Below, one piece after another: positions 40 to 53,313 of a stretch of DNA of 58,500 nt. The DNA is from Candidatus Colwellbacteria bacterium. Its GTDB lineage: Bacteria; Patescibacteriota; Minisyncoccia; UBA6257; Colwellbacteraceae. The notes under the pieces were generated by a model. The model saw nothing but the letters and a program-made list of their open reading frames with translations. It ran no database searches and was not told the DNA's origin. The stretch spans positions 1-58,500 of the forward strand of contig JAQTUL010000008.1 of NCBI GenBank assembly GCA_028710275.1, in the 5' to 3' direction. Numbering within the stretch: the first letter of the stretch is position 1; each line of letters begins with the position of its first letter. The position numbers and the translations under genes are program-made.

Positions 40-129
40 GGAGAGGTGCTAGAGCGGTCGAATAGGACACGGTGCTAACGTGTTAGACTCGAAAGGGTCT
101 CCAGGGTTCGAATCCCTGCCTCTCCGCCA
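40..129 (+). tRNA. tRNA-Ser(GCT), CCA encoded
   Basis: Cloverleaf read by eye: acceptor GGAGAGG/CCTCTCC, anticodon stem ACACG/CGTGT with loop GTGCTAA, long variable arm, T-arm CAGGG-TTCGAAT-CCCTG, then GCCA. Confidence 0.9.
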
Positions 130-137
130 AGACAATT
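114..137. repeat. attL-type direct repeat CCCTGCCTCTCCGCCAAGACAATT (tRNA-Ser 3' end plus 8 nt trailer)
   Basis: Exact 24-bp match to 14981-15004. The flanking bases differ on both sides. Confidence 0.85.
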
Positions 138-227
138 TATTATCGGAGATGACCCATTTACCTAAGTAAGTGATATGATCCGAGTATATAAATAGTTTTA
201 AAATACACTTTCATATATAAATTATGT

Positions 228-2011: not shown

Positions 2012-2151
2012 ATACCTCATGAATGACGCCGACCGCCGAAGGAGTCCAGAGCGTCCCAAGTAGATAACTAAACAATGGCCAGACCTATGAAGAGTTGCGA
2101 ATTAACGTAAATACTTGACGAGCAAATGGAACTTATGCTAACATAGGAAAA

Positions 2152-3861
2152 ATGACAGAAACATCAAACGATAAGGACCTACTCTCTATCGGCGAAGTTG
2201 CCAAGATTTTTGGCATAAACAGAGATACCCTCCGCAATTGGGAGAAAAAGGGACTCATTACTCCACTTAGGATAGGTCCTCGTAAAGATCGCAAATACAG
2301 ACCGGAAGATATTGAGCGAATTGCTAATGACAAAAGCATTGTTAAAGATCTTGGTGTCCCCTTAACGGATGATCAGGGAAAGATGAACCTAACTCAGCTC
2401 AAGCAATTCCTTTGGAGAAGTGCCGATATTTTGCGGGGAAAGATCGACAGCTCGGATTACAAGAAATACATTTTTGGACTCCTATTCTATAAGCGCATCA
2501 GCGATATGTGGGATGAAGAGTATAAAAAGGTTCTTGAGGAGTATCACAATGAGGATTTAGCTCGCGAAGATCATAATCACCGATTTCAAGTTCCTAAAGA
2601 TTGCCGATGGGAAGTAATTCAAAAACAAGCTGAAGGAATCGGTCACAAACTCAATGAAATTTTTGATAAGCTAACCAACGCAAACAGTCCTAAACTCGAC
2701 AAGATTTTCGACGACCTTGATTTTGCTAATAAGGATAAGTTTCCGAATGAAACACTACAACGTCTTATAAATCACTTTTCACAGCATAATTTTGGAGATA
2801 ATTATATTAATTCCGATCTCCTTGGAGACGCATACGAGTATCTCATTGAGCAATTCGCAGCGGATGCGGGCAAAAAAGGCGGAGAGTTCTACACGCCACG
2901 CGAAGTTGAGCGCGTAATTGTCAATATCTTAAAGCCTCACGAAAAAGACCACATCTACGATATGACCGTAGGCTCCGGAGGATTCCTTTTAGAGGCGTAC
3001 CACTATCTTAAAAACGAGGCTAGTGAGAAGAAAGCTCGCTCACTCTACCTTTACGGGCAAGAAATAAATATCGGGACATATGCGATTGCGAAAATTAACA
3101 TGTTCCTTCATGGGCTTGATAGTGCCGACATACAACGTGGAGATACGCTAGCCGATCCGAAATTTCTAAATCCCGACGGCTCACTGAAGACCTTCGACAT
3201 CTGCGTAGCAAACCCACCCTATTCAATAAGTGAGTGGGAATCGGAAATATTTAAATCTGACAAACACGGACGAGCAGCTGGTTATGAAATGCCTCCGGCT
3301 AAGAAAGCGGACTATGCCTTTGTTCTTCACATGGTGAAGTCGATGAATGAGAACGGTCGTGCAGGCATCGTGCTTCCGCACGGTGTTCTTTTCCGTGGCG
3401 GCGCAGAGGGTCATATCCGTGAGCAGCTTATTAAAAATGATTTAATTGAAGCCATCATTGCCCTTCCCTCAAAGCTGTTCTATGGCACAGGTATCCCGGC
3501 GGCAATAGTAATATTTAACAAAAATAAGCCTGATGGCCATAAAAATAAGATCCTTATCGTCGATGCGGAGCAGGACTATGAAGAAGGCAAAAATCAGAAT
3601 CGCCTGCGGAAAGTGGATATTCAGAAGATAGTTTCGGCATTTGAGAGCTACAGAGACATTGAGAAATATGCCCGCGTCATAGGTATTAAGGAGCTTGAGG
3701 AAAACGAATTCAATCTCAATGTGCGTCGCTACGTTGAAAATGGCGAGGACGAGGAAGTGGTGGATGTAAAGACCGTCTGGGGCTATGTGAAAGAAATTGA
3801 AAATGATCGCGATGTGATTGATAAGAAGGTCGAGGGATATCTAAAGGGATTAAAATACTAA
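2152..3861 (+). CDS. hsdM: Type I R-M methyltransferase subunit HsdM with an N-terminal excisionase/MerR-type HTH extension
   Basis: Motif I TVGSGGFLL and motif IV NPPY; HsdM N-domain FLWRSADILRG. The first 77 aa (LLSIGEVAKIFGINRDTLRNWEKKGLITP) form an HTH. Confidence 0.9.
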   Translation: MTETSNDKDLLSIGEVAKIFGINRDTLRNWEKKGLITPLRIGPRKDRKYRPEDIERIANDKSIVKDLGVPLTDDQGKMNLTQLKQFLWRSADILRGKIDSSDYKKYIFGLLFYKRISDMWDEEYKKVLEEYHNEDLAREDHNHRFQVPKDCRWEVIQKQAEGIGHKLNEIFDKLTNANSPKLDKIFDDLDFANKDKFPNETLQRLINHFSQHNFGDNYINSDLLGDAYEYLIEQFAADAGKKGGEFYTPREVERVIVNILKPHEKDHIYDMTVGSGGFLLEAYHYLKNEASEKKARSLYLYGQEINIGTYAIAKINMFLHGLDSADIQRGDTLADPKFLNPDGSLKTFDICVANPPYSISEWESEIFKSDKHGRAAGYEMPPAKKADYAFVLHMVKSMNENGRAGIVLPHGVLFRGGAEGHIREQLIKNDLIEAIIALPSKLFYGTGIPAAIVIFNKNKPDGHKNKILIVDAEQDYEEGKNQNRLRKVDIQKIVSAFESYRDIEKYARVIGIKELEENEFNLNVRRYVENGEDEEVVDVKTVWGYVKEIENDRDVIDKKVEGYLKGLKY

Positions 3862-3865
3862 ATTT

Positions 3866-4678
3866 ATGTCAGAAGAACTACAAACAGAAGAAGTTAAAAC
3901 AATGAGCAAGCACGATTTCTATTTTGAAACCCCCTTGTATGAAGCAGTCTCAATTAGCGAACTAGAGAAAGATGCTTTCAGATACGATGTTGATGCCTAT
4001 AGCGCACAGAACGAGTCAGAAACTACCTACAGCATTTATACCCAAGAAATTGATACTTGGCTAAAAGATAGTACAACCATTGGTTTCTATCTGATTACTT
4101 TAACCTGTAAGAGAAAGCAGAATGATGTATTAAGATTTACTGTTTACAAGGACAGAGAAATTGTCCTAAAAATTGGTCAATACCCCTCTCTCGCAGATTT
4201 GCAGTTCGCGGAAATTGGTAAAAAGTATAACAAGGTTTTACCTTCTGAAGATCTAAAAAATCTCAAAAAGGCGATTGGGCTCGTATCTCACGGAGCTGGG
4301 GCGGGCTCGTTCGTTTATCTCAGGAGAATTTTTGAGAAATTAATTCTTGAGACATATACCAATAACGCTAGTTCTCTCAAGATAAACGAAAGTGATTTCA
4401 AAATACAGCGAATGATGGATAAAGTTGAAACGTTAAAAGCGTTCCTCCCGAGTCAGCTTGTAGAAATGAAGGGCGTTTACTCGATTTTAGGTAAAGGAGT
4501 CCACGAATTAACGGAGGAAGAGTGTCTCCGATATTTTTCACCGATCAAACTTTCTATTGAGTTGATCCTTGATCAGAAGATCGAGGAAGATAGAAAGCGT
4601 GAGAAAGACGCAGTGGTTAAAAAGCAATTACAACAAATTCAGCAGGAAATTGCCGCTGAAAGAGAAGATGAAAAATAA
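3866..4678 (+). CDS. Hypothetical protein inserted between hsdM and hsdS (possible DUF4145-like helical C-terminal half)
   Basis: 270-aa ORF tightly packed in the operon. The segment GLVSHGAGAGSFVYLRRIFEKLI...GKGVHE resembles helical domains seen in R-M loci, but the similarity is weak. Confidence 0.6.
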   Translation: MSEELQTEEVKTMSKHDFYFETPLYEAVSISELEKDAFRYDVDAYSAQNESETTYSIYTQEIDTWLKDSTTIGFYLITLTCKRKQNDVLRFTVYKDREIVLKIGQYPSLADLQFAEIGKKYNKVLPSEDLKNLKKAIGLVSHGAGAGSFVYLRRIFEKLILETYTNNASSLKINESDFKIQRMMDKVETLKAFLPSQLVEMKGVYSILGKGVHELTEEECLRYFSPIKLSIELILDQKIEEDRKREKDAVVKKQLQQIQQEIAAEREDEK

Positions 4679-5855
4679 TCTAGTACAACAGAATATTCCG
4701 AGCGGTTGGCAAAGCACCTCCGTCGATGATATTTGCTACGTTATGAAAGGACAGGGTCTTTCAAAAAAAGACATAGATCCTTCTGGTAAAAATAAATGCA
4801 TATTGTATGGCGAGTTATTTACAACTTACGACGAGGTTATTAAAGACGTAAAAAGCAGAACTGACTCAACTGTAGGCACTCCATCGGTCAGCGGTGATGT
4901 GCTGATCCCCGGATCGACAACAACGGTCGCACGAGACCTCGCAATTGCGTCAGCTTTAAACGAAGATGGTGTGCTTCTGGGTGGAGATATAAATATATTA
5001 AGAAGAAAAGACAGCTTCTACGACGCTAACTTTCTGGCCTATTACTTAACGCACTATAAGAAAGACGAAATTGGAAAACTCGGCCAAGGGACGACTATTG
5101 TTCACTTGTATGGAAGTAATATCAAAGCTTTAGAAGTCATTCTCCCTAAAAACATCAGAGAGCAGCAAAAAATTGCAGAGGTTTTAGGGACGGTGGATGA
5201 GGATATTGCGAAAACACAGGAAGTGATTGAAGCGACAGAAAAACTCAAGCGTGGATTGATGCAGGATATATTCAGCTTTAAAAATAAAAAAGATGTTAAA
5301 TATCTTGCTCTGGGGAATATTGGCAAGGTGTCCATGTGTAAGAGGGTTTTTAAAGAAGAAACATCAAACACGGGTGAGATACCGTTTTATAAAATTGGTA
5401 CTTTCGGGAAAGAGCCAGATGCTTTTATATCCCAAAAATTATTCGATAGTTACCGAAGAAAGTTTTCTTTTCCTAAAATTGGCGACATACTTTTATCAGC
5501 TTCTGGAACTATAGGTCGAAAAGTTAAATATGATGGCAAACCGGCGTATTTTCAAGATTCAAATATTATTTGGTTAGAACACGATGGAAGTAAAATTTTA
5601 AATGATTTCCTTTTTTATTTATACGACACAATAAAGTGGCAGACCGAAGGAAGCACAATAAAAAGATTGTATAACGATATTCTGTTGAAAAAAGTTGTTC
5701 CTGTGCCTTCTATTGATCAACAGAAGCGAATCGTAGAAGTTTTATCTGTAATTGATGAAAAGATTTCGGTCAATAAAAAATTGAAAGAAAAACTTACGCT
5801 CCTCAAAAGAGGCCTGATGCAGGATTTGTTGAGTGGGAAAAAGAGAATAATATGA
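4668..5855 (+). CDS. hsdS: Type I R-M specificity subunit HsdS
   Basis: Two variable target-recognition halves are each followed by the conserved LKRGLMQD(I/L) repeat. ATG 4668 has AAAGAGAAG upstream. The ORF track extends to 4569. Confidence 0.85.
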   Translation: MKNNLVQQNIPSGWQSTSVDDICYVMKGQGLSKKDIDPSGKNKCILYGELFTTYDEVIKDVKSRTDSTVGTPSVSGDVLIPGSTTTVARDLAIASALNEDGVLLGGDINILRRKDSFYDANFLAYYLTHYKKDEIGKLGQGTTIVHLYGSNIKALEVILPKNIREQQKIAEVLGTVDEDIAKTQEVIEATEKLKRGLMQDIFSFKNKKDVKYLALGNIGKVSMCKRVFKEETSNTGEIPFYKIGTFGKEPDAFISQKLFDSYRRKFSFPKIGDILLSASGTIGRKVKYDGKPAYFQDSNIIWLEHDGSKILNDFLFYLYDTIKWQTEGSTIKRLYNDILLKKVVPVPSIDQQKRIVEVLSVIDEKISVNKKLKEKLTLLKRGLMQDLLSGKKRII

Positions 5856-7132
5856 CTACCGAAACGCTAAAAAATAAAACGAAGACGAAAGAGATATACC
5901 ACGCAGTTAATACCGATCCTATTTTCGATGTTAAATCACGTGAAGTAACTAAGGGAAGTCTTTACGAAATTGTCTTTCCGTTTAACCGTCAAGGTAAGCA
6001 GAAATATTCTCTGATATCTGAGATCCATTTCGATGGGGTTAGTCGTCTAGACCTCAAAGGTATGCGAGGCATATCTCGCGGTTATGGCTTTACGCAGGAT
6101 ACTTCTCCCATCGTATCCACTCTGAATGAAGCTTTCCATGGCGTGACAAAAATTATCATTTCCACTAAGGCAACATCAATCAACCAGCGAAAAAGTGAGC
6201 TCGTGTTGAACATTAATGACTATAAGACTATTTACTCTACGATCAGGCCAAAAAACCAGAAACATTCTAAAGACCAAAAGGTTACAATCTATAATATTTT
6301 GGCACAGGCAGGCGGATTAGGCCTCAAGGCTAAGAAAATTCCTTATATCGCTGGATCAATTAAGGGAATCTTGAGAGAGGTTTCTTCATCGGGAGGAAAG
6401 CTGTCAGACGCCGATTCCGCCGCACTTCTTGATTTTGCACAGAACAAAATTGAAAACTATGACATTGATGCTGCCGCTCTAATCCATACGAAGGAAAAAA
6501 TAGACAAGGTTTATTTTGAGAAAGTCATAGCTAGGTTCGAGAAATTACTTGCTCTTAAAAAGGGTGTCGGTGCAAAGAAGATGGAACAGAGTTGGCACAA
6601 CTTCTTTAAAGATAACTCTTGGATCTTTTCGTACTTGTTTGCTGCACCACACTTCCTTTTTCAGGACGAGTATTATGTTGGTGGGCAAAAAGGCACGGGC
6701 AAAGAAGCGCGATATGCTGATTTTATTTATAAAAATAAACTGACCGACAGTGCAACAATAATTGAGATTAAAACTCACAGGACGAAAATACTACACAACA
6801 CTGCCTATCGTTCTGCTGGGAAGGTATATCCGATCTCGTCAGACATCACTGGAGCAATAAATCAGGTGCTCGATCAGAAGAACACTCTTCTTAAGAATTA
6901 TTCAACTGTAGCTCAAGGTGATTTTGAGATCTTTGACCCTCGCTGCGTCATCGTGGTCGGAAACACCAAAGACATCCCAAGGGAACGGGTAAAGAATTTT
7001 GACATGTTCCGCTCGAACCTGAGGAACATAGAAATCATCTGTTTCGACGAACTACTGGAAAAAGCAAAATTGCTTTTGAGTCACTTCATCAAACCGAGGG
7101 TCCCCAAAAAGAAAAAGAAGAAAAGAAAGTAA
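5852..7132 (+). CDS. Shedu-like (DUF4263-type) PD-(D/E)XK nuclease with an unrecognised N-terminal domain
   Basis: The C-terminal half has WHNFFKDNSWIFSYLF, YADFIY...IIEIKTH (D..ExK), VIVVGNT and IEIICFDELL, which matches the Shedu/SduA layout. Lysine-rich tail. Confidence 0.6.
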   Translation: MTTETLKNKTKTKEIYHAVNTDPIFDVKSREVTKGSLYEIVFPFNRQGKQKYSLISEIHFDGVSRLDLKGMRGISRGYGFTQDTSPIVSTLNEAFHGVTKIIISTKATSINQRKSELVLNINDYKTIYSTIRPKNQKHSKDQKVTIYNILAQAGGLGLKAKKIPYIAGSIKGILREVSSSGGKLSDADSAALLDFAQNKIENYDIDAAALIHTKEKIDKVYFEKVIARFEKLLALKKGVGAKKMEQSWHNFFKDNSWIFSYLFAAPHFLFQDEYYVGGQKGTGKEARYADFIYKNKLTDSATIIEIKTHRTKILHNTAYRSAGKVYPISSDITGAINQVLDQKNTLLKNYSTVAQGDFEIFDPRCVIVVGNTKDIPRERVKNFDMFRSNLRNIEIICFDELLEKAKLLLSHFIKPRVPKKKKKKRK

Positions 7133-7133
7133 C

Positions 7134-10046
7134 ATGAAATTTAACGAACAGGTCACAGTAGAAAGCTACATTATCAAGTTTATTGAAAATAAACTTGGCT
7201 TCGATTACATAAAATCGGAGGAATTTTCAAGACTCCGTGATCTTGAGAGTGAATACATTATCAAATCGCAGTTACTTGATGCGGTGAAAAGAATAAACGA
7301 GGTTGGTGATGCTGTGGCAAAAAGTGTTTTGCGAGAAGTAACTAAAATAGATTCAAATAAGGACTTTTTAGATTCTATTCGCAATGGTATAAATCTGAAA
7401 GATCCAGAAACCGGGCTATTTCGTGATTATAAAATCGTTGATTTTAATAATCCGGAAAATAATCAGTTTGTTGTTACCAACCAATTCTATTTTGAGGGAG
7501 ATACAGAAAATATTCGTCCGGATATATTGATTTTTGTGAACGGACTTCCGCTCGTGGACATTGAAGCAAAGAGTCCAACCGCCTCAGAAGGGGTTAACTT
7601 TGAGAATGGGATTGAGCAAATTAAGAGATATGAAAAAGTCGCCCGCAGGTTGTTTATTCCAAACTGCTTTAATATTGCGAGCGATGGTCTTAAAACAGTT
7701 TATGGAGCGACTGGTTCGCCGAAACAGCTTTTCCTCCAGTGGAGGGATGAGGATATAGAAAAAGAGTTTGGTGGCGAGTTAGAAATGACGCTCTTCTCAC
7801 TTCTCTCCAAAGAAAACTTTCTAGATATTATTCAAAACTTTATTCTCTTTGAAAAAGAGAAAGAGAAGATGGTAAAGAAAATGGCTCGCTATCAGCAAAT
7901 GCGAGCAACTAATAAGATTGTCGAGCGCGTTCTTTCCAAAGAAAAAAGACAAGGCTTAATTTGGCACACACAAGGATCCGGGAAAACACTTACAATGTTT
8001 TTCACTGCGTGGAAACTGCGATTCAATAAAGTCCTTGCCAACCCGAAGGTGTTTATTTTGGTTGATCGCGTGGATTTAGATGACCAGATATTTGAGACCT
8101 TTACCAATGCTGGAGGAAAGAACGTGGAAAGAGTTGTTTCTCGGAAAGATTTAGAAGAAAAGATTCAATCACCGATAAGCGGAATATTTATCACAACAAT
8201 TCAGAAGTTCTCAGAACTCGGAAGCCAAGTAGAAAATCTCGATGAAAATGTGATTATTCTTGCCGATGAAGCTCACCGAGGTAATGAGGGTATTTCTGGT
8301 ATCAATATGCGTAATGCCTTTAAAAAAGCGTTCTTCTTTGGATTTACTGGAACGCCAGTTGATAAAACACACACAAATACTTTCCGGAACTATGAGGGCG
8401 AAGGAAAACGCTACTTGGATTATTACTCCATCCAGCAATCAATTGATGACGGGGCGACAATTCCGGTGACATATGAGGCACGTCTCTCTAAGTTCTCTAT
8501 AGATGAAGAAAAACTTGATCAGAAATTTGAAGAGATAACCGGAGATTTACCTGATAAGCAAAAAACCGAACTTATAAAGAAATATGGTAAGAAGGCTGCG
8601 CTTGTTAAGTTACCAAAACGAATGGAAGCCGTAGCCAGAGATATTGTTGAGCATTATAAGCTATATGTCGAACCAAACGGTTTTAAGGCACAGGTTGTTG
8701 CATACGACCGTGAAGCAGTGGCGAATTATAAAAAGCTATTCGACAAACTCATCCCCGCTGAATGGTCAGCTGTGGTTTATTCGCCTGGAGATCCAAACAG
8801 TGATGCTGATGACTTAAAGATATATAACACGAGTAAACGTGAGCGAGAACAAATCATCGAACGCTTTAAAGATCCAAAATCTTCACTAAGACTCCTTCTG
8901 GTATGTGATATGTTACTAACTGGTTTTGATGCGCCTATTGAGCAAGTCATGTATCTCGATAAGCCGCTCCGTGATCACAACCTCTTGCAAGCAATTGCTC
9001 GTACAAACCGCGTCTACACAAATAAAGACTACGGGAAAATTATTGATTACTACGGAATAACGCGCAATCTCTACGACGCTCTTGATTTTGACGAAGATAT
9101 CATCGATTCAGCAATGATTGATATCGAGCGGGTCAAAGAAAGATTTACCGACATCTTGAGCGACATAATGAAGATGTTTATCGGAATTAATATTGAGGAT
9201 CCATCAATGGATAATCTCCGCCGATGCTTGAAGATTTTCATCGATAATCAAGATAAGCAAAAATATTTTCTTGAAAAATATACAAAACTAAAAAGCTTGT
9301 TTGAATTTCTATCGCCCGACCCATTCCTAAAAGAATATGTCCGTTCTTTTGAATGGGTGACAAGCTTCTATTTGGCATTTTTAAAAGAATTCCGAAATGA
9401 AGATGACAGATATCTGCTCGGAGAATATGGCGAGAAAGTTAAAGAACTCATACAAGAAAGTAACATTATTGACTACGAAGGGATTACTAAGAACTTCCGA
9501 GAGCTTCGTGTAAACGATCTATATACACTTGAGCGCCTAAAAGGAATGGACGACGAAGAAAAAGCGCTCAATCTCGAGAAAATGCTCAAGCAAGAAATCT
9601 CGATCAATCTTGACGAAAATCCTGCGTATCAAAAATTTAGCGAACGATTAACGGCTATTCGTCGCGAATTTGAGCAGAACCAAATTGACCTGGCTGAGCG
9701 TATCCGCCGATATGAGGAATTAATGAGTGATATTAAGTCAAAAGGAGAAGAAGCCAAAGATTTAGGTCTTGATCTCAAAGAATATGCACTCTATGTCATA
9801 TCGCAGGAATTCATTGAGGATGGTAAAGACGATGTTATTAAGAAATTCGTAAAGGAATTGCGGATTCGTATTGAAGATGACCTCGATGTAGGATGGCAAG
9901 AATCGTCAAAGCGGGACGCTTTTGTTAAGGATATTAAGCAAACTCTACAGGAGCTTATTCTGAAAGATTACAGAGAACAATTTAAAGTTACAGATTTCCC
10001 AAAGTTTTTAAATAGATTGGTCGACATAATCACGAAAAAATTCTGA
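7134..10046 (+). CDS. hsdR: Type I restriction enzyme R subunit HsdR
   Basis: 970 aa. N-terminal nuclease PDILIFVNGLPLVDIEAK, Walker A TQGSGKT, DEAH box ADEAHRG, motif VI QAIARTNR. Confidence 0.92.
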   Translation: MKFNEQVTVESYIIKFIENKLGFDYIKSEEFSRLRDLESEYIIKSQLLDAVKRINEVGDAVAKSVLREVTKIDSNKDFLDSIRNGINLKDPETGLFRDYKIVDFNNPENNQFVVTNQFYFEGDTENIRPDILIFVNGLPLVDIEAKSPTASEGVNFENGIEQIKRYEKVARRLFIPNCFNIASDGLKTVYGATGSPKQLFLQWRDEDIEKEFGGELEMTLFSLLSKENFLDIIQNFILFEKEKEKMVKKMARYQQMRATNKIVERVLSKEKRQGLIWHTQGSGKTLTMFFTAWKLRFNKVLANPKVFILVDRVDLDDQIFETFTNAGGKNVERVVSRKDLEEKIQSPISGIFITTIQKFSELGSQVENLDENVIILADEAHRGNEGISGINMRNAFKKAFFFGFTGTPVDKTHTNTFRNYEGEGKRYLDYYSIQQSIDDGATIPVTYEARLSKFSIDEEKLDQKFEEITGDLPDKQKTELIKKYGKKAALVKLPKRMEAVARDIVEHYKLYVEPNGFKAQVVAYDREAVANYKKLFDKLIPAEWSAVVYSPGDPNSDADDLKIYNTSKREREQIIERFKDPKSSLRLLLVCDMLLTGFDAPIEQVMYLDKPLRDHNLLQAIARTNRVYTNKDYGKIIDYYGITRNLYDALDFDEDIIDSAMIDIERVKERFTDILSDIMKMFIGINIEDPSMDNLRRCLKIFIDNQDKQKYFLEKYTKLKSLFEFLSPDPFLKEYVRSFEWVTSFYLAFLKEFRNEDDRYLLGEYGEKVKELIQESNIIDYEGITKNFRELRVNDLYTLERLKGMDDEEKALNLEKMLKQEISINLDENPAYQKFSERLTAIRREFEQNQIDLAERIRRYEELMSDIKSKGEEAKDLGLDLKEYALYVISQEFIEDGKDDVIKKFVKELRIRIEDDLDVGWQESSKRDAFVKDIKQTLQELILKDYREQFKVTDFPKFLNRLVDIITKKF

Positions 10047-10047
10047 T

Positions 10048-10614
10048 ATGAGTAAAATAGAATTACAAAATCAAACTATTACCTACACTCTTCGTAAGAG
10101 TAAGCGTGCTAAAAGAATGAGACTTGCGGTCTATTGTGACGGAACAATAGTGATCACTACTCCGCACAATTTTAAAGAAACAGTCGCAGAGAAGTTTATT
10201 AGGGAAAAGTCTGAATGGTTATTCTCAAAAATTGATTTCTTTAAGCAATTTCAAGGTCGTCCAGTTGCCCGATATAGCCAAGAAGACTATCTGAAATATA
10301 AAGATCAGGCGTTGGCTTTAACTAAAAAACGAATTGAGTATTTCAACAAAGCTCATGGTTTTAAATTCAATAAAATCAATATCAAAAATCAGAAGACTCG
10401 CTGGGGCAGCTGTTCAAGAAAAGGAAACTTGAATTTCAACTACAAAATTATCTTTCTACCGGATCGAGTACAAGACTATATCGTTGCTCACGAACTCTGT
10501 CATCTCAAAGAGTTTAATCACTCTAGAAAATTCTGGACATTAGTTTCTAAATTGATGCCTGACTACGCTACTATCCGGAATGACTTAAAAAAGAGTGGTT
10601 TAGCATTCTATTAG
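10048..10614 (+). CDS. DUF45/YgjP-like zinc metallopeptidase-fold protein
   Basis: HELCHLKEFNHSRKFW (HExxH...H) and TRWGSC. This family is commonly adjacent to hsdR. Confidence 0.8.
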   Translation: MSKIELQNQTITYTLRKSKRAKRMRLAVYCDGTIVITTPHNFKETVAEKFIREKSEWLFSKIDFFKQFQGRPVARYSQEDYLKYKDQALALTKKRIEYFNKAHGFKFNKINIKNQKTRWGSCSRKGNLNFNYKIIFLPDRVQDYIVAHELCHLKEFNHSRKFWTLVSKLMPDYATIRNDLKKSGLAFY

Positions 10615-10615
10615 G

Positions 10616-11353
10616 ATGATTAAAAGATTACCTAATCCAATAAAAAAAGTTGAGACCGGATTAATACAGTTTTTCTTTTACATAGGAACACTGGCCTACT
10701 TACTCTTAAAAGGATATGGATGGTCTTCTGTTCTGATTATTCATCTGATTTTTGTAGTGTTGTACGGAGTCTACTATTTCAGAGAAAATTTTCTCATATT
10801 TTTCTTTTCACCTATTATCGCTGTTTGGTTGCCAATTGAGAACTATAAGCTTCGAAAATATCTCAAAAAATTCAAACAAAACACACCGGCTAAATCAGTA
10901 GTTATTTTGGGACGTTATAATTGGTTTAAGTTTGACGCTTGGCTCAGGCAAAATTTTCTGAAGAGCGAGGTTAAGTCTCTTGTCTCATATTTAGAGGCAA
11001 AGAATCGAGACTTTTCTTTCTATCCTGATGCTACTCTTGCCGATGTGGAAAGTATTATGAGTAATAAGAGTATAAAGGAGGTGTATTTTATGGGCCACGG
11101 CGATTCACACACATTTCAACTTAACACTGATGAATTTCTGTACTATTGCGATTTTAACGATCCACAAAAATACGGCAAAGAATTTGTGCATCAAGTACAC
11201 TGCGGCACTCCTGATGGAAAAAGCTTAATAGATTATGTTGTGCCAGAGAAGAATAGGCCACAGTGCTTTTTCTTCAGGAAGCCAATTAATTCCTTCGATA
11301 TTGATAAGGAATTTAAGCGGAGGATTAAGAACCTCAAAAAATTAGGCGATTAG
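10616..11353 (+). CDS. Membrane-anchored hypothetical protein with a possible caspase/CHAT-like His/Cys dyad
   Basis: About three N-terminal TM helices. The C-terminal domain has VVILG, YFMGHGDSH and HQVHCGTPDG. The fold assignment is tentative. Confidence 0.55.
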   Translation: MIKRLPNPIKKVETGLIQFFFYIGTLAYLLLKGYGWSSVLIIHLIFVVLYGVYYFRENFLIFFFSPIIAVWLPIENYKLRKYLKKFKQNTPAKSVVILGRYNWFKFDAWLRQNFLKSEVKSLVSYLEAKNRDFSFYPDATLADVESIMSNKSIKEVYFMGHGDSHTFQLNTDEFLYYCDFNDPQKYGKEFVHQVHCGTPDGKSLIDYVVPEKNRPQCFFFRKPINSFDIDKEFKRRIKNLKKLGD

Positions 11354-11402
11354 CCTATAGATAGCTCCGACTTCGCGACCCTTATTAACTAAACTACGGA
11401 TC

Positions 11403-11936
11403 TTAAATTTCCTTGATCTTTTTATGTTTCTGCCAATCTCTAATATATCCCTCATAACCCGATAACTCGTAGTCCTCTATAGGACTACCATCCGGCTTAT
11501 TAGGTATTTCTCCACCAAACATTGTCAGTTCTTCTTTTAACCTTAGCGTTTTTTGACGTAAATTTTCTTCGAAGCTGTCTATTACATCTTCAGCCGTTAT
11601 CTGCTCGACAACTGGTGGCAACTCTTTCTTATGGAAGATAACCACATTACTCGTTTGTTTAGACTTATATCTTTGATCATTATGGCCTAGTACATATTTG
11701 ATCGCCGTCATGTCCTTGTCCTTTACCTTGAGCATGAGAGCATGTTCGGCTATGTCGCAATTATTTTCTCTGCCACGCTGTATGGCCTGACCCGCAAGTT
11801 TCCGGAACTCTTTATCCGAGTTGCGCCAACGATAATACGTCGATTTGTCGATTCCGGTTTTCAGGCAAGACAAAAATACATTCCCGCTTTTCTCGAGTTC
11901 TTTAAGAAGTTTCTGTTTTGTCTTGTCGTCGATCAT
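11403..11936 (-). CDS. Phage-type HTH protein (terminase small subunit-like)
   Basis: N-terminus KQKLLKELEKSGNVFLSCLKTGIDKSTYYRWRNSD resembles the HTH of phage small terminase/phBC6A51-type proteins. Confidence 0.55.
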   Translation of the reverse strand: MIDDKTKQKLLKELEKSGNVFLSCLKTGIDKSTYYRWRNSDKEFRKLAGQAIQRGRENNCDIAEHALMLKVKDKDMTAIKYVLGHNDQRYKSKQTSNVVIFHKKELPPVVEQITAEDVIDSFEENLRQKTLRLKEELTMFGGEIPNKPDGSPIEDYELSGYEGYIRDWQKHKKIKEI

Positions 11937-11937
11937 A

Positions 11938-13266
11938 TTAATTCACTTTTACTGGTTTCTTACCTGTTTCTTTTCCCCAGCGACGCAATATCACTTCGGT
12001 ATAGACTGGAGATTTTTCCATAAGATAACACCGACGGCTCATTTTGTTTGCCGCGATGAGTGTCGACCCGCTTCCGCCAAACGGCTCAACAATCAGGTCG
12101 CCACGTCTGGTTAATACCTTGATGTATGGAATAAGGATCTCAACAGGCTTAGTCCCGAAGATAATGCCTTGTCCTGATGATTTCTCGTCAGCCGCAATGT
12201 GCTCGATAAAGTCAGTCGGACATATTTTCTTGCCTTTCTCGTATGTCTCCCAATGCGGTTTACCGTTTATGGCATACAAGGCGGTTTCGTATTCGTTTTC
12301 GAGAAACTCTCCTTCATCTTGGTTTATAAGCTCCACACCTTCGGTTGTGCCGACCATGGCAATATCGTGTTTATTAAAGAATCGGTATTTGGCTGAGAAT
12401 CCCTGCACTCTATTAGGTAAGTGCCAGACGATCATGTTTTTGACCTTCCAGTGTTTTTCCATCTCGTTCCAGATAGTCCTAATATTCTTCCAATTCTCAT
12501 AGACGATAATGGCGAAGTCTTCTTTAGCCACCTTACTGATGTTACTCATCCAGAGTTCAGTGAAGTTATCCGGCAAGACATCGGTTTCAAGGTAGCGCCT
12601 GTTTTTCTTGGCCCCGAAGCCTGTCGTCACGCCATCTTTCTGCTTTGTTTTGCCTTTTAGGTAATCGAGGATGTATGGCGGATCGGTAAGGCACATATCC
12701 GCCTTATTGTTGTCCATAAGTTTGAGCATATCTGCCTCCACGGTTGAATCACCGCACATGAGGCGCGATCCATCCAGTTCATAGATATCGCCCTTTTCTA
12801 CGCTGATTGTTTCAATGCTTAGCTTCTCTAACTCTTTATTGAGATCAAACTGCTCAACATTTGGATCAACGGGGAAGATGTCATCTAAGTCTTCGCTGTT
12901 GAAGCCAATATCGGCGAGAAATGACTCGTCGAATTGAGCTAACAGTTCAAGGTCAAACTCTCCAGTATTTTTGTTGAGCCGGAGGTTTAACTCTTTCTCT
13001 TTAGATAAGTCGGCAATTTGTACATAGACTACTGGCACCGCTGCCATACCCATCTCTTTAGCTACCTCAGCTCTGAAGTGACCGCCAATGATTATGTTCT
13101 TTCGCTCCGGCGCGCTATTGCATATCACCGGATCAACCATACCGAATCGTTTGATGGATTCTCTAAGCTGGTCGCTTTGTTCCTTGGAGTGTCTTCGAGG
13201 GTTATACTCCGATGCCCGAAGTTCGTTAATCGGAACTTCAACGATAGAAAGATTTTGTTTATTCAT
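11938..13266 (-). CDS. ParB-like nuclease domain fused to an N4/N6 DNA methyltransferase
   Basis: ParB/Srx motifs YNPRRH and IIGGHFR; methylase motif IV TDPPY and motif I EPFGGSGST. Confidence 0.85.
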   Translation of the reverse strand: MNKQNLSIVEVPINELRASEYNPRRHSKEQSDQLRESIKRFGMVDPVICNSAPERKNIIIGGHFRAEVAKEMGMAAVPVVYVQIADLSKEKELNLRLNKNTGEFDLELLAQFDESFLADIGFNSEDLDDIFPVDPNVEQFDLNKELEKLSIETISVEKGDIYELDGSRLMCGDSTVEADMLKLMDNNKADMCLTDPPYILDYLKGKTKQKDGVTTGFGAKKNRRYLETDVLPDNFTELWMSNISKVAKEDFAIIVYENWKNIRTIWNEMEKHWKVKNMIVWHLPNRVQGFSAKYRFFNKHDIAMVGTTEGVELINQDEGEFLENEYETALYAINGKPHWETYEKGKKICPTDFIEHIAADEKSSGQGIIFGTKPVEILIPYIKVLTRRGDLIVEPFGGSGSTLIAANKMSRRCYLMEKSPVYTEVILRRWGKETGKKPVKVN

Positions 13267-13544
13267 AGTTTTCTAGGTGAATTATTTTGAGTAAACACAA
13301 ACACCACCCTGTTGGGTGGTGTTTCTATCGACCGAGTTCAAAAACACACCCCTAAGGGTAATATTTTTGATACTCGGCTGTTCGCAATTTTATTCTTCTA
13401 AGAGAATGGTGTATGGACTCTTCCGTCAGCTGAGCTGCGTTCTCCAGAGTTAAGAGTCGCTGCGAGAACGTTTCAAAAAAACTAACTAATATGGCAAAGT
13501 GCTTACATAGCAAGTATACAACATTTTGAAATAATTTAGAACAT

Positions 13545-14192
13545 ATGTCTTTATCCGATAAAGCCATCAAAGAGTTTCAGGAGATTTATAAGAAGAAATA
13601 CGGCAAAGATATTTCTCCTGAAGAAGCACGCGATGCTGGCGAGCGTTTAGTAGGCTTGTTTGAAGTTCTGTTTGATAGCCATGTTGCCGAATTAAGGTTG
13701 AAGGAGAAGCTGAAAGATCACCCAAAGGGGTTTTCTTTAATGGATGACGAGATCTATAACTGCGGTATTTGCCATACTCAGATCAGAGACGAAGAACTTT
13801 GGTATGACAAATGGGGTAAAAAGTGCCTTGCGTGCCAGGATGCAGTAAACAAGAAGATTATTCCCGGGAAGATCTGTTATAACAACAAAGATTGGTACGC
13901 TGTATGGGAGCTAGATAGCTGTTTCAAACTAAAGGCGGCGGCCGCCAGGAAGCTTATCCGACAAGGCGTCCTAAAGGCTCGTATTGTCCCAAAAAGCGGC
14001 TTTGAGGTCATTTTGTTGAAAGAGAATACCGATGTCCTACCTCCTAAGGAAATACTGAAATATGTCTCTGTACCTGTAGAGGGCAAAGAGGGCGCTTTCA
14101 GCATGACCCCGTGGTACGAAATATATGATCCCAAGAAGGTGCTAGGGAGCTATAAAATCTGGCCGTATTTAACAGCTTTTAACCAAAAATAA
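13545..14192 (+). CDS. Hypothetical protein with a CxxC...CxxC zinc-finger-like motif
   Basis: 215-aa ORF. CGICHTQI...KKCLACQ. Island cargo. Confidence 0.6.
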   Translation: MSLSDKAIKEFQEIYKKKYGKDISPEEARDAGERLVGLFEVLFDSHVAELRLKEKLKDHPKGFSLMDDEIYNCGICHTQIRDEELWYDKWGKKCLACQDAVNKKIIPGKICYNNKDWYAVWELDSCFKLKAAAARKLIRQGVLKARIVPKSGFEVILLKENTDVLPPKEILKYVSVPVEGKEGAFSMTPWYEIYDPKKVLGSYKIWPYLTAFNQK

Positions 14193-14194
14193 CT

Positions 14195-14674
14195 ATGTCC
14201 ACAAATCAGACAAGCTTTTCCTCAGAAGAGACGTCACTTATAGAAAAAGTTGAACGTGCGGTGCGGTCTTCGATTAAAACAGATTTTGAGATTCTAAAAA
14301 ATGGTAGGGTAGAAAGAAGTTTTACATCTCATCTCGCAAGAGCAATACAGGATGAGATAAGCGAGCATAACATTTATGGCGATCCCTTCTATAATAAACA
14401 TTTAGGGGCAGCTAAATATCTTAATGGTAAAATAATAGAGCTAGATGTAGCCGTTCACGAAAGAAATGTAGATACAAACAATCTGGTCGCGATAGAACTA
14501 GAAACAAATAATCACCCAGAAGGTAACGATATTTGGAAAATCGAAGGATTGACTCATAATCTCGGCGGTTATGGTTATAAGATTGGCTTGTATTTGGTTG
14601 TTGGGGTTTCAGAAAGAGCTGGGGAAATAATTACGATGGATTGGTATAAAAGTGGTAGTAAAGTGAAAATTTAG
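14195..14674 (+). CDS. Hypothetical protein
   Basis: 159-aa ORF, 3 nt after the previous gene. No motif recognised with confidence. Confidence 0.55.
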   Translation: MSTNQTSFSSEETSLIEKVERAVRSSIKTDFEILKNGRVERSFTSHLARAIQDEISEHNIYGDPFYNKHLGAAKYLNGKIIELDVAVHERNVDTNNLVAIELETNNHPEGNDIWKIEGLTHNLGGYGYKIGLYLVVGVSERAGEIITMDWYKSGSKVKI

Positions 14675-14849
14675 AAAGTCCTGAGTACTGTCTTATTTGT
14701 CGCATTTTGGAATTGGGATAACGACCCACATACCTTAAATTTGATCCTGTTTAGAGGCCTCAAAGAGGCCTTATAATGCTTACATACGGTGAGTACTTAA
14801 CTCACATACACCGCATACTATAACAACCGACTTATGTCGGTTGTTATAG

Positions 14850-14996
14850 TATTTGAAAAGGTTCGCAGGGATTCGAACTGAAAAGGGGTCGGGAAAAACC
14901 GCTCGGCAGTTTTTCCCGTAGCGGAAATACTAAAACCGATGGGTTTTAGGGAGCGAATGAATATGAGCGACGTTCGATTACCCTGCCTCTCCGCCA
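14850..14996 (-). ncRNA. tRNA-3'-end-associated structured module, copy D (right edge of the island)
   Basis: Inverted tRNA-Ser T-arm copy GCAGGGATTCGAAC at 14865-14878. Hairpins GGGAAAAAC/GTTTTTCCC (14891-14917) and AAAACC/GGTTTT (14932-14947). Conserved GAGCGACG, then a partial tRNA-Ser 3' end. Homologous to copies A, B and C. Confidence 0.45.
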
Positions 14997-15004
14997 AGAC
15001 AATT
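14981..15004. repeat. attR-type direct repeat (second copy of the tRNA-Ser 3' end)
   Basis: Exact 24-bp match to 114-137. Confidence 0.85.
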
Positions 15005-15133
15005 CTTTATTGGTACAACCCGAGTGAGTACCTAACTGTATATGGGAAAAAAATGGTTTGAATTAAGGACCAAGGTTCCTAAAACGCAGTCCCGCGAATA
15101 CGCGGACGAGTAGTGAGACTCCCCTGCCTCTCC
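15005..15133 (-). ncRNA. Truncated module copy E plus a third partial tRNA-Ser 3' end (CCCTGCCTCTCC, 15122-15133)
   Basis: 15062-15121 aligns with copy C at 53047-53104 in inverted orientation (TCTCACTAC..GTCC(C)GCGTATT.GCGGGACTGCGTTTTAGGA.CCTT.GGT.CCT). Confidence 0.4.
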
Positions 15134-18648: not shown

Positions 18649-18700
18649 GATATAAATAACATTTTAAAAAAACCGCTCTAAAAAGCGGTTTTTTATTATA

Positions 18701-18840
18701 TGAGCGGGAGACGAGAATCTCCTTCGACTAAATCTCTCGCCGTCGCTCAAGATTTGTCTCTGGCTCGCCTCCCTCTATTTTTCTACTGAAAAATCTTCGG
18801 TCCGGCGTTCGACTCCCATCTAAACCCATCCGATATAATA
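18701..18840 (+). ncRNA. tRNA-3'-end-associated structured module, copy A (next to tRNA-Gly-TCC)
   Basis: Starts with a partial antisense tRNA-Gly 3' end, TGAGCGGGAGACGAGAATC. Has conserved CCGTCGCTC, hairpin ATTTTTC/GAAAAAT at 18777-18794 and GTTCGACTCCC at 18807-18817. Confidence 0.4.
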
Positions 18841-18876
18841 AAAGACCGCCCCTTCGGGACGGCCTTTTATTATATG

Positions 18877-18948
18877 AGCGGGAGACGGGAATCGAACCCG
18901 CGTATACTGCTTGGAAGGCAGTCGCACTAGCCACTGTGCTACTCCCGC
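18877..18948 (-). tRNA. tRNA-Gly(TCC)
   Basis: Reverse complement gives GCGGGAG..., anticodon stem ACTGC/GCAGT with loop CTTCCAA, T-arm GCGGG-TTCGATT-CCCGT, discriminator U. Confidence 0.88.
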
Positions 18949-49464: not shown

Positions 49465-49535
49465 ATAGGAAGATTATCAGACTTTAACCCAAAAATCCCC
49501 TTCATTAGAAAATTATTTATCCTTTATAAACGATA

Positions 49536-49698
49536 GGTGTCTAACGGGAATCTCACGTCGTCGCTCCGTCTCCGCTTACGTTCCGCATCGCTCCTCTATG
49601 AAACCTCTCGGTTTCATTACTTCCTCCACGGGGCGCTCCCGGCGTGCCCCGACCCCCTGACTTGTTCGAATCCCTCCCAACCACTGCATAAATAAAAT
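49536..49698 (+). ncRNA. tRNA-3'-end-associated structured module, copy B (next to tRNA-His)
   Basis: Starts with GGTGTCTAACGGGA, the same 14 nt as 49730-49743. Has conserved GTCGTCGCTCC, hairpins AAACC/GGTTT and GGGGCGC/GCGTGCCCC (with a G.U pair only on this strand) and GTTCGAATCCC at 49664-49674. A terminator follows. Confidence 0.45.
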
Positions 49699-49729
49699 AC
49701 CCCTCCTAAGAGGGGTGTTTTTATTTATG

Positions 49730-49802
49730 GGTGTCTAACGGGATTCGAACCCGTGCCGGAGGCTCCACAAACCTCAGTGCTAACCACTACACCATAGACA
49801 CC
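49730..49802 (-). tRNA. tRNA-His(GTG) with encoded G-1
   Basis: Reverse complement gives G-GTGTCTA..., anticodon stem GAGGT/GCCTC with loop TTGTGGA, T-arm ACGGG-TTCGAAT-CCCGT, and an 8-bp acceptor including G-1:C73. Confidence 0.88.
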
Positions 49803-52958: not shown

Positions 52959-53031
52959 GGGATAATTAAATCACACCTCCGGATTTTACGGAACCATAGG
53001 GGGAGGTGTAACGTGATTCTCTATTATTCTA

Positions 53032-53207
53032 GCAGGGCCACAAGGCAATCTCACTACTTGTCCCGCGTATTAGCGGGACTGCGTTTTAGGAGCCTTCGGT
53101 TCCTAACGACCCTCGATATTCTCGGGTCTATCCTCCTCCACAGAGGGGATACCTGCGTCTCCCCTCCGACCCACCCCTTGTTCGAATCCTTGTGGTAATC
53201 CCGAAAA
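53032..53207 (+). ncRNA. tRNA-3'-end-associated structured module, copy C (next to tRNA-Trp)
   Basis: Starts with GCAGGGCCACAAGG, which matches 53242-53255 at 13 of 14 positions. Hairpins GTCCCGC/GCGGGAC, AGGAGCC/GGTTCCT (G.U only on this strand), GACCC/GGGTC and AGGGGA/TCCCCT. GTTCGAATCCTTGTGG at 53180-53195 is a 16-nt sense copy of the tRNA-Trp T-arm. Confidence 0.45.
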
Positions 53208-53242
53208 TAAAAAACCCGTCCGATGGCGGGTTTTTTATTTTG

Positions 53243-53313
53243 CGGGGCCACAAGGATTCGAACCCTGGTTAACGGTTTTGGAGACCGTCGTTCTACCACT
53301 GAACTATAGCCCC
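53243..53313 (-). tRNA. tRNA-Trp(CCA)
   Basis: Reverse complement gives GGGGCTATAGTTCAGTGGTAGAAC, anticodon stem ACGGT/ACCGT with loop CTCCAAA, T-arm CAGGG-TTCGAAT-CCTTG, discriminator G. Confidence 0.88.

Follow-up and report, generated by a model that had tools for sequence, protein, structure and literature searches.

What lies beyond the 3' ends of certain tRNA genes of a Candidatus Colwellbacteria bacterium, and how did it arrive there? The question is raised by a stretch of 58,500 nucleotides (contig JAQTUL010000008.1 of assembly GCA_028710275.1, positions 1 to 58,500; the window), which contains 11 tRNA genes and one tmRNA gene (ARAGORN, Rfam). Three of these, the minus-strand genes for tRNA-Gly-tcc, tRNA-His and tRNA-Trp, are followed at the 3' end by a hairpin terminator, a segment of 130-180 nt and a partial direct copy of the 3' end of the same tRNA. 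The reading that we tentatively favour, with a probability of about 0.45, is that such segments are small non-autonomous integrative units of Patescibacteria, which insert on the 3' side of the T-loop (approximately between positions 59 and 60) of tRNA and tmRNA genes. These bacteria, also known as the candidate phyla radiation (CPR), have tiny genomes with few recognised mobile elements, and their gain of defence and accessory genes is poorly understood.

The original prediction, made from the sequence of the window, had described five homologous segments (A-E) at the ends of four tRNA genes, and all five were found at about the places it named. A pattern derived from units B and C (TCCTCCAC, a gap of 14-34 nt, GACCC, a gap of 5-10 nt and GTTCGANTCC) matched at least 119 stretches in one-genome-per-species reference genomes, nearly all of them in metagenome-assembled genomes of Patescibacteria; in viral contigs there was a single match, a chance one inside a coding region. 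A covariance model, R1, was built from 28 of the shortest copies, all from genomes other than that of the window. Among the pattern matches listed, R1 retrieved 103 copies at E<=1e-3, and it rejected the four stretches from outside the CPR. The counts given below over some 100-121 outside units refer to the matches listed by the pattern scan, which are a lower bound on the family. Homologues had been expected always to abut tRNA 3' ends, and approximately 100 of the 121 listed matches do sit 21-100 nt beyond the 3' end of a convergent tRNA gene. The neighbours of the listed units comprise 30 anticodon classes and the tmRNA, which bears out the idea of one module matched to different tRNAs. The unit at a tmRNA 3' end (locus L205, 1283-1465; also L206) has an 18-nt direct repeat, TTTGTGGAGATGGTGGGA, and an inverted copy with a tmRNA-type T-loop, GTTCAAC. 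The units measure about 110-180 bases and have no gene of their own.

Within the window, R1 (filters off) found unit B (49574-49683, 52.8 bits, E=1.1e-13), unit D (14859-14971, minus strand, 51.5 bits, E=2.6e-13) and unit C (53087-53199, 32.0 bits, E=1.8e-7), and nothing else credible over the whole stretch. Membership of one family is thus supported by the model for B, C and D, whereas unit E is a half copy that R1 did not find, and unit A, with a score of only 6.4 bits (E-value about 9), has decayed; its counterpart at the same tRNA-Gly in a relative (L001) is better preserved and reaches 58.8 bits. A, B and C do lie directly past the tRNA 3' ends, but D and E are 14.7 kb from tRNA-Ser, with an island in between. 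No named RNA family had been recognised in the segments, and this stands: at gathering scores only tRNA and tmRNA of Rfam 15 pass in the whole window, and at E<=10 units C and B yield only chance matches driven by the terminator or the tRNA. No published description of such units was found in the literature searched. We consider the observation to be largely real; it reaches far beyond the window and concerns one family in CPR bacteria.

The arrangement is illustrated by unit C, next to tRNA-Trp, the features of which are given here in plus-strand order:

53032..53045, plus strand: displaced direct copy of the tRNA-Trp 3' end, antisense (GCAGGGCCACAAGG versus GCGGGGCCACAAGG, 13/14)
53046..53179, plus strand: core of unit C (R1 match and sequence)
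53046-53054, plus strand: junction block CAATCTCAC
53060-53079 and about 53085-53106, plus strand: two extra hairpins in common with unit E
53108-53128, plus strand: hairpin 2, GACCC/GGGTC
53134-53141, plus strand: conserved TCCTCCAC
53144-53165, plus strand: hairpin 1, AGGGGA/TCCCCT
53168-53179, plus strand: GACCC and pyrimidine tract
53180..53195, plus strand: inverted copy GTTCGAATCCTTGTGG, equal to tRNA-Trp from G53 to acceptor position 68 (16/16) on the opposite strand
53196..53241, no strand: spacer that separates the inverted copy from the tRNA 3' end and contains a bidirectional hairpin terminator (terminator scan)
53242..53313, minus strand: tRNA-Trp (cca), host of unit C (ARAGORN; Rfam tRNA, 70.7 bits); its positions ~60-76 form the tRNA-proximal member of the duplication

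Read antisense to the tRNA, a unit begins with the displaced copy of the tRNA 3' end, which ends in ...GGA at the border of T-stem and T-loop, about position 59/60 (approximately 100 copies). It is followed by an optional block (CGCTTCGCT), a T-loop-like 7-mer (ATCTCAC or ATCGAAC), extra hairpins that vary between copies, hairpin 2 (typical form GGGAAACC-CAC-GGTTTTCCC; a single bulged base is conserved), the string AATCCT-TCCTCCAC, hairpin 1 (typically GGGGAAAC-NNNN-GTTTCCCC), and GA with a pyrimidine tract. From GTTCGAWTCC onward, the sequence after the tract is an inverted copy of the G53, T-loop, 3' strand of the T-stem and part of the acceptor of the neighbouring tRNA. Then come the spacer, which is either a terminator or a short hairpin or, in certain copies, cargo of several kilobases, and the tRNA itself. 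In the sense of the tRNA, the core of about 100 nt opens with a purine tract, which is followed by hairpin 1, GTGGAGGA and hairpin 2, and closes with the T-loop-like GTGAGAT or GTTCGAT.

The two hairpins, which had been predicted to occupy fixed positions with stems differing between copies, were confirmed on data independent of the window. In the alignment of 103 homologues, 95.4% of the helix cells are paired, compared with 78.9 +/- 0.6% in shuffles, and double changes were counted in 248 cells (68.9 +/- 6.1 in shuffles). Compensatory change was seen in 13 of the 16 helix pairs, and when the partner is slid by one column, pairing falls to 76% or less. The hairpin loops show no preference for GNRA or UNCG.

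Another regularity concerns the pyrimidine tract, which covaries with the 5' (purine) strand of hairpin 1 as its mirror image and not as its complement. Thus GGGAGGAG is accompanied by CCCCTCCTC, GGGAGGAACC by CCCCTCCTTC, GGGGAAC by CCCCCTCC, GGGAAAAC by CCCCTTTCC and (in L203) GGGAGAGG by CCCCTCTCC. A parallel rule (G to C, A to T) fits 254 of 364 variable positions, compared with 187.6 +/- 6.2 when tracts are shuffled among copies, and none of 5000 shuffles reached the observed fit; the tract has no antiparallel partner. The copies in the window obey the same rule (GGGAAAAAC with CCCCTTTT in D, GGGGA with CCCCT in C, GGGG with CCCC in B). In this layout the purine strand, its loop and the pyrimidine strand are joined by a short linker to another pyrimidine strand, which runs parallel to the purines. 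An intramolecular triple helix requires just this order, and such a triplex may form here; the opposite strand would be its purine-motif equivalent. To our knowledge, evidence from sequence comparison for an intramolecular triple helix in a bacterial element is unusual.

The direct copy is equal to the neighbouring tRNA at 956 of 966 positions, and 69 outside units carry a direct repeat of at least 12 nt. Counted from C61, identity extends over 13-18 nt (mode 14-16), ends sharply and is random beyond; it spans the 3' strands of T-stem and acceptor, the discriminator and 1-3 more bases. The predicted displaced copy is present in every segment of the window (13/14 in C, 13-15 nt in B, 23 nt plus GAATC in A, 24 nt in D, 12-13 nt in E). 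It behaves like an ordinary attachment (att) site or target duplication with sharp ends. An origin as cDNA of mature tRNA, by analogy with retroviral primer-binding sites, was ruled out, since positions 74-76 of the distal copies (CAA 36%, CCA 17%) resemble genomic trailers (CAA 33%, CCA 20% in unit-free tRNA genes of the same loci), with no enrichment of CCA. The tRNA genes of loci L004-L122 are themselves mostly without an encoded CCA (CAA 33%, CCA 20%, CAG 15%, or CAC at positions 74-76), and C74 is nearly always encoded.

The inverted copy always starts at G53. Its variable T-loop base matches the neighbouring tRNA in 98% of cases, compared with 35% for other tRNAs, and in 55 of 97 copies the match runs at least 4 nt past the 10 nt that the search pattern itself dictates (controls: 1.3%). 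Identity is graded, from 100% at C61-C62 through about 75% in the T-stem to about 25% at the acceptor end. In the window, the inverted T-arm copies that had been reported are complete in C (16/16) and D (14/14) and weaker in B (11 nt, of which 10 are generic T-loop) and A (13/15); unit E, as predicted, lacks this half and retains only the tRNA-distal one. The two ends of the unit can indeed pair in C, D and many outside copies, in a closing helix that changes with the tRNA, but the helix is not kept by compensatory change of its own: direct and inverted copies agree against the tRNA at only 3 of 966 positions. In L031 and L034, the inverted copy differs from the resident tRNA despite a perfect direct repeat. 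The inverted copy may rebuild a double-stranded image of the target in a single strand (in the manner of integron attC or the CTX site), or it may be made or corrected in place; because its identity is graded, we make no choice between the two.

Several arrangements look like the products of insertion. At one tRNA-Pro (L014), two units stand in tandem in the order repeat, unit, 20 nt, repeat, unit, 16 nt, tRNA; tandem units also occur in L034 and as D and E in the window. In L094, a block in which unit and repeat are followed by 22 nt of trailer and by cargo of 2.9 kb has been re-inserted exactly at 59/60. Cargo lies between the inverted copy and the tRNA, and includes a LexA-fused methylase with a partner gene (L012, L007), Fic genes (L016, L037) and other genes. 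No enzyme common to the units emerged when the open reading frames (ORFs) near them were clustered: the largest cluster obtained for 115 loci covers 14 of them, and the top clusters were judged by eye to be housekeeping genes. A recombinase homologue was found within 8 kb in 3 of 121 loci (ORF search), to which L007 adds a fragment cut by the end of the locus. A unit of 125-200 bp is too small to hold one.

In relatives, units are retained at the same tRNA. One relative, with 75% identity in the neighbouring Dus protein, carries a longer unit in the same place beside tRNA-Trp, and another, with 71%, a truncated one. A relative with 61% Dus identity has no unit at tRNA-Trp, but its locus is rearranged, and no clean empty site was found at the Dus-tRNA-Trp locus in relatives. 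Decayed or truncated copies occur in relatives too (L204).

Some observations on the cargo and on additional insertions may be added. The LexA-methylase cassette is the same beside units of two CPR lineages (L012, 2445-5032; L007, 4387-6854; 69-74% nucleotide identity): a LexA-like repressor is fused to an N6/N4 DNA methylase, and the partner gene, which has no domain match, may encode a nuclease. In L077 (oriented 3290-3997), a gene for a LAGLIDADG-type homing endonuclease lies between the unit and a pair of tRNA-Met genes. Relative to L042, L043 has about 60 extra nt (oriented ~800-900) nested in or beside hairpin 2, and L014 and L058 have in common a long hairpin of about 100 nt in this position; unit E of the window resembles the insert within unit C. 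It seems that secondary insertions are tolerated by the units, or drawn to them, at fixed points.

On which of the two strands does the fold form, and is it a fold of DNA or of RNA? The original prediction took the wobble pairs as pointing to an RNA antisense to the tRNA, and the larger sample points the other way. Wobble pairs make up 40 of 1514 cells (2.6%); in 28 of them the tRNA-sense strand has G.T where the antisense strand has A.C, and the other 12 are the reverse (naive binomial p=0.017); within hairpin 1 the sense strand leads by 15 to 2. The sense strand also folds more stably in 65 of 67 cores. The heptamer GCGAAGC was counted 29 times in the sense orientation and not once in the antisense one, and CGAAG 51 times against 2 (shuffle expectation 15 +/- 4). 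The GCGAAGC sites are at the junction, in the optional third hairpin and in short spacers, with stems closed by C-GAA-G. As DNA, d(GCGAAGC) is well known for forming a mini-hairpin of exceptional stability, and triplexes of the purine motif are characteristic of DNA. Near-pure Watson-Crick helices, GCGAAGC and the mirror tract taken together make folded single-stranded DNA the most economical interpretation, and the folding strand is probably the tRNA-sense strand.

In the favoured reading, the unit's copy of tRNA positions ~60-76 would complete the interrupted gene, and the original tRNA 3' end would be pushed to the far side of the unit as the direct repeat. The units would be moved by an enzyme encoded elsewhere, which would recognise the conserved core together with universal features of the T-arm. 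The folded core would be the recognition scaffold of this enzyme, and the inverted copy would pair, in the fold of the sense strand, with the unit's own tRNA-end copy, giving a double-stranded image of the target comparable to integron attC and the attP of phage CTX. What was observed and speaks for such units is their anatomy, the precise junction, the tandem and cargo-bearing copies, the inverted copy matched to the neighbour, the covariation of hairpins and mirror tract, and the fact that no recombinase gene is linked to them. The junctions are compatible with either of two mechanisms, namely site-specific recombination of the conservative type with unit-borne positions 60-76, or insertion with a target duplication of ~15-17 bp. 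The former fits the exact coincidence of the repeat with the gene end, and the latter explains more easily one core at 30 tRNAs.

Several points count against this reading. No excised form, no empty site in a close relative and no candidate enzyme was found, for which reason mobility is deduced from anatomy. Campbell-type retargeting to 30 tRNAs is hard to explain, as the tRNA-end copy and the inverted copy must change together, and a double-stranded intermediate in the form of a circle of only 150-200 bp is difficult to envisage. About 40% of copies have no inverted copy, or at most a generic T-loop, even though the direct repeat is perfect, which makes a strict role of this copy in forming the recombination site doubtful. 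The family is patchy: 915 kb of other CPR DNA (80 recombinase loci and a few others) yielded 3 distinct R1 matches, and most tRNAs there were without a unit. The case for single-stranded DNA is composed of indirect hints, the GCGAAGC argument among them, and the greater stability of the sense-strand fold is a weak one, since G-rich strands generally fold better in silico.

A bolder version, which we hold to be rather unlikely, is that the self-folding scaffold (two hairpins and an intramolecular triplex) and the target-derived arm together form a programmable attachment site, specific to the CPR, which would act as single-stranded DNA or RNA with an enzyme encoded elsewhere. If this were true, gene-less units and defence cassettes could enter essentially any tRNA or tmRNA gene without destroying it, and the choice of target would lie in the fold of the mobile DNA and not in the recombinase.

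Among the rival explanations, transposon-like insertion survives best, although we regard it as unlikely. The two strands would be cut by an integrase at staggered sites, one at 59/60 and the other shortly after the tRNA 3' end, and repair would duplicate ~15-17 bp, a process likened to target duplication by casposases and CRISPR Cas1. The tRNA would then never be broken and any tRNA would be usable, with the unit bringing only spacer, inverted copy and core. The sharp ends and narrow range of the duplication (13-18 nt from C61), the near-constant identity of proximal and distal copies, the tandem arrays, and the copies in L031 and L034, in which a perfect direct repeat accompanies a deviating inverted copy, all agree with this proposal; a near-constant core at 30 tRNA species and tmRNA is also easily explained if the target is the universal T-arm. 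Casposons produce duplications of 14-15 bp and can target tRNA 3' ends. On the other hand, no Cas1-like or transposase gene was detected near any unit by ORF clustering (no Cas1 domain search was run), and the implied ends bear no clear terminal inverted repeats. Moreover, the inverted copy matches the neighbour far above chance, which is unexpected if it is merely carried, unless it is made or corrected in place, and a duplication ending at the gene end is also expected from selection on an element-borne tRNA copy.

Bearing on a possible RNA are the signs of transcription. Units B and C are followed, as had been predicted, by hairpin-plus-T-run terminators, which are bidirectional and shared with the tRNA; terminator-like hairpins, often bidirectional, are present in 29 of 100 spacers, and the other spacers are short. 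Units with short spacers could be co-transcribed with the tRNA. No conserved promoter was seen at the units. A promoter-like match on the minus strand of the window (53026-53054), formed by the GTGAGA block of unit C and the distal trailer (TAGAAT, preceded by TG), faces the downstream thioredoxin-like gene at 52590-52958 and may be due to chance. A small ORF on the tRNA-sense strand was considered as well and discarded: a 9-codon frame after GGAGGA ends at the TGA of GTGAGAT in one subfamily, and by eye this stop is lacking in the GTTCGAT subfamily.

A guide function, in which the core would be a structured small RNA whose two target-derived arms program a recombinase to the tRNA gene, as do the bridge and seek RNAs of IS110/IS1111, is distinctly improbable. 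The conserved scaffold flanked by tRNA-dependent segments, the strong helix covariation, the terminator that often follows the unit in the antisense direction and, for the sense direction, the possible co-transcription of short-spacer copies with the tRNA would all suit a guide RNA. However, there is no linked recombinase gene; the arms are mutually complementary and correspond to a single target segment instead of two half-sites, and one of them is simply the displaced tRNA end. The identity of the inverted copy decays, and the copy is missing in ~40% of units; there are almost no G.U pairs, which would be unusual for an old RNA family, no conserved promoter was seen, and GNRA or UNCG loops are not preferred. 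Of the two suggestions made originally, the miniature element has thus gained ground (no linked recombinase, tandem copies, cargo), whereas the guide, with an inverted copy that decays and is unmatched beyond the T-loop in ~40% of copies, has no positive support.

Very unlikely, in our opinion, is that the units are decaying attR arms of islands of large serine recombinases at tRNA genes. The idea is suggested by a separate genomic island between tRNA-Ser and unit D:

130..14864, no strand: genomic island (Pfam)
689-2059, minus strand: large serine recombinase (Pfam)
2152-10046: type I restriction-modification system (Pfam)
5852-7132: Shedu-like gene with SduA_C domain (Pfam)
11938-13266, minus strand: ParB-methylase (Pfam)

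Unit D lies at the far end of this island, and its repeat, CCCTGCCTCTCCGCCAAGACAATT, matches tRNA-Ser-gct and its trailer (114-137), 14.7 kb away; in L007 a unit, cargo and the N-terminus of a serine recombinase follow in the same order. The recombinase has more than 8000 relatives, the best 120 of which show 82-94% identity across CPR lineages, whereas the neighbouring housekeeping Dus has no relative above 77%. Its family targets tRNA 3' regions: in 80 metagenome loci, relatives with at least 65% identity are nearly always 0.1-7 kb from a convergent tRNA-Ser of any anticodon (about 45 other loci show this neighbour), with a few exceptions beside Ala, Gln or Asp tRNA, and most of those at 59-65% identity are beside tRNA-Arg, Trp, Asp or His.

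The islands, however, have a motif of their own, GACAATTTTTTATCGGCATGACCCGAGTG, which is conserved directly after the tRNA (L128, L130, L162, L165, L170), even after tRNA-Asp, and which is probably an attachment-site arm of the recombinase. Similar sequences follow tRNA-Ser (130-175) and the repeat of unit D (15005-15045) in the window. The motif was not seen in the 45 shortest non-terminator spacers of the units or in the listed trailers, by inspection and with no explicit motif search. In the up to 10 kb upstream of the recombinase that was searched in 80 loci (many islands being longer than 10 kb), R1 found no unit, and an apparent match in L144 lies in coding sequence; the predicted co-occurrence with serine-recombinase islands was not found in these regions, and that in the window looks incidental, the island being a separate element. 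For the same reasons (no modules in the 80 upstream regions, a trailer motif of its own), the serine recombinase is probably not the enzyme of the units. Against an origin as attR remnants there are also the 3 distinct R1 matches in 915 kb, none of which is at the end of a recombinase island, the rarity of recombinase homologues within 8 kb (3 of 121 loci, the L007 fragment being extra), and the consideration that relics would not keep compensatory helices or a covarying mirror tract.

Finally, a non-mobile, host-beneficial tRNA appendage (terminator, processing signal or 3'-trailer structure) produced by local inverted or tandem duplication would agree with the retention of units at the same tRNA in relatives with 71-75% Dus protein identity, with the long palindrome formed by inverted copy, terminator and tRNA end, and with the likeness of the direct-inverted-direct layout to tandem-inversion duplications, but we judge it the least probable explanation, since repeated local origin cannot yield an almost identical core of 100 nt at unrelated tRNAs of many lineages, tandem and cargo-bearing copies exist, most tRNAs have no unit, and decay or truncation has affected some copies (A in the window; L204, from a relative).

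How do the putative integrative units compare with known systems? Islands directed to tRNA genes, integrase-less elements flanked by att sites and folded single-strand recombination sites are already known. The combination of a gene-less unit of ~125 nt, a covarying scaffold with a triplex-type tract, dozens of tRNA targets and confinement to the CPR was not found in Rfam 15 or the literature. The units resemble tDNA islands and prophages (Islander; T-loop sublocation) in being directed to the 3' portion of tRNA or tmRNA genes, which are restored, in the displaced 3' fragment left as a direct repeat at the far end (as in units A-E), in tandem accumulation at one tRNA, and in defence-gene cargo; the repeat of 13-18 nt from C61 coincides exactly with the gene end, as an att identity block would. 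They differ in having no integrase gene (the whole element can be as small as ~125-200 bp), in one conserved core that serves at least 30 tRNA species, in a crossover-adjacent arm that is a covarying fold and not an array of protein-binding sites, and in the inverted target copy inside the unit. With integrated non-autonomous elements that have att sites at both ends (CIMEs) and with MITE-like derivatives of mobile elements they have in common the lack of recombination genes, a presumed enzyme acting in trans, many copies, and cargo that can be carried or lost. CIMEs, however, are deletion derivatives of identifiable parents and use the same att site, whereas no autonomous parent of the units was found and their target genes are many.

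Integron attC and the folded attP of CTX are similar in keeping a structure while the stem sequences vary, in nearly pure Watson-Crick helices, in a conserved bulged base and in a closing helix that could rebuild the double-stranded target; integron cassettes likewise carry promoterless or defence cargo without a recombinase gene. The units lack the GTTRRRY/RYYYAAC boxes of attC, their ends being ATCTCAC or ATCGAAC and GTTCGAWT, with C instead of a purine after GTT; their target is the tRNA T-loop and not attI or dif, and they have the additional triplex-type tract. No integron integrase was seen among the ORFs of the window that were scanned, and there is no attI nearby. Like the IS110/IS1111 RNAs, the units have a structured scaffold of ~150 nt with target-matched segments that change with the target, but they have no DEDD/serine transposase gene beside them, their target-matched segments represent both strands of a single site and not guides in two internal loops, and the unit consists of a closing helix and two plain hairpins without a donor-binding loop. 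Casposons and their miniature derivatives also insert at tRNA 3' ends, with sharply bounded duplications of ~15 bp and tandem arrays. They belong to another host group, and the units differ in having a folded core, no nearby Cas1 or polymerase gene (no Cas1 domain search was run) and no evident terminal inverted repeats, except for a 7-nt T-loop-like match (ATCGAAC ... GTTCGAT) in a subset. Unlike an intrinsic terminator or a REP-like repeat, the units possess a multi-helix core of ~100 nt and tRNA-specific copies, with terminators only in the spacer.

The family marks the ends of tRNA genes as insertion points for gene-less units and small cassettes (restriction-modification, Fic). If scaffold and target-matched arm set the insertion site, this would be a new way to build site-specific, retargetable integration, of interest for genome engineering. 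The units account for tRNA-like fragments and odd intergenic repeats in CPR assemblies, and the covariance model is ready for use in annotation.

The remaining units of the window and their hosts are as follows (plus-strand coordinates throughout):

49535..49728, plus strand: unit B (R1 52.8 bits and sequence)
49535-49549, plus strand: displaced copy AGGTGTCTAACGGGA of unit B
49549-49566, plus strand: AATCTCAC-GTCGTCGCTC of unit B
49598-49617, plus strand: hairpin 2 of unit B, ATGAAACC/GGTTTCAT
49622-49629, plus strand: TCCTCCAC of unit B
49630-49650, plus strand: hairpin 1 of unit B, GGGGCGC/GCGTGCCCC
49651-49663, plus strand: GACCCC tract of unit B
49664-49674, plus strand: inverted T-loop copy GTTCGAATCCC of unit B
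49694-49721: bidirectional terminator of unit B
49729..49801, minus strand: tRNA-His (gtg), host of unit B (ARAGORN; Rfam)
40..129, plus strand: tRNA-Ser (gct), host of units D and E, with the island now in between (ARAGORN)
14865..15004, minus strand: unit D (R1 51.5 bits; repeat by blast; fold z=-3.4)
14865-14878: inverted copy GCAGGGATTCGAAC of unit D
14879-14890: purine tract and GGGGTC of unit D
14891-14917: hairpin 1 of unit D, GGGAAAAAC/GTTTTTCCC
14930-14949: hairpin 2 of unit D, CTAAAACC/GGTTTTAG, with the junction TTCGATTA also present in this unit
14981-15004: displaced copy CCCTGCCTCTCCGCCAAGACAATT of unit D, identical to 114-137 (tRNA-Ser 3' end and trailer)
15005..15133, minus strand: unit E, older and truncated, tRNA-distal half only; its hairpins are homologous to 53049-53096 of unit C (91.7% over 48 nt)
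15113-15120: GTGAGACT of unit E
15121-15133: diverged displaced copy CCCCTGCCTCTCC of unit E
18691..18875, plus strand: unit A, decayed
18691-18713: displaced copy TTTTATTATATGAGCGGGAGACG of unit A, then AATCTCC and CGTCGCTC
about 18778-18795: hairpin of unit A, ATTTTTC/GAAAAAT
18807-18821: inverted copy GTTCGACTCCCATCT of unit A (13/15)
about 18840-18870: terminator of unit A
18876..18948, minus strand: tRNA-Gly (tcc), host of unit A (ARAGORN; Rfam)

The simplest history of the tRNA-Ser locus is that E was inserted and later truncated, that D followed, and that the island then entered the trailer site between the tRNA and D. The Shedu-like gene of the island lies inside the type I restriction-modification operon, which consists of hsdM (with an N-terminal MerR-type helix-turn-helix domain), hsdS and hsdR. 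Next to unit D there is an ORF of 159 aa (14195-14674), whose homologues, as those of a defence gene carried as cargo, were uninformative as a route to the ends of the island. They occur in defence-type neighbourhoods of unrelated bacteria (L207-L213), next to SMC/AAA ATPase, TIR, SMODS and OLD-family genes, and the ORF may belong to an undescribed defence gene pair.

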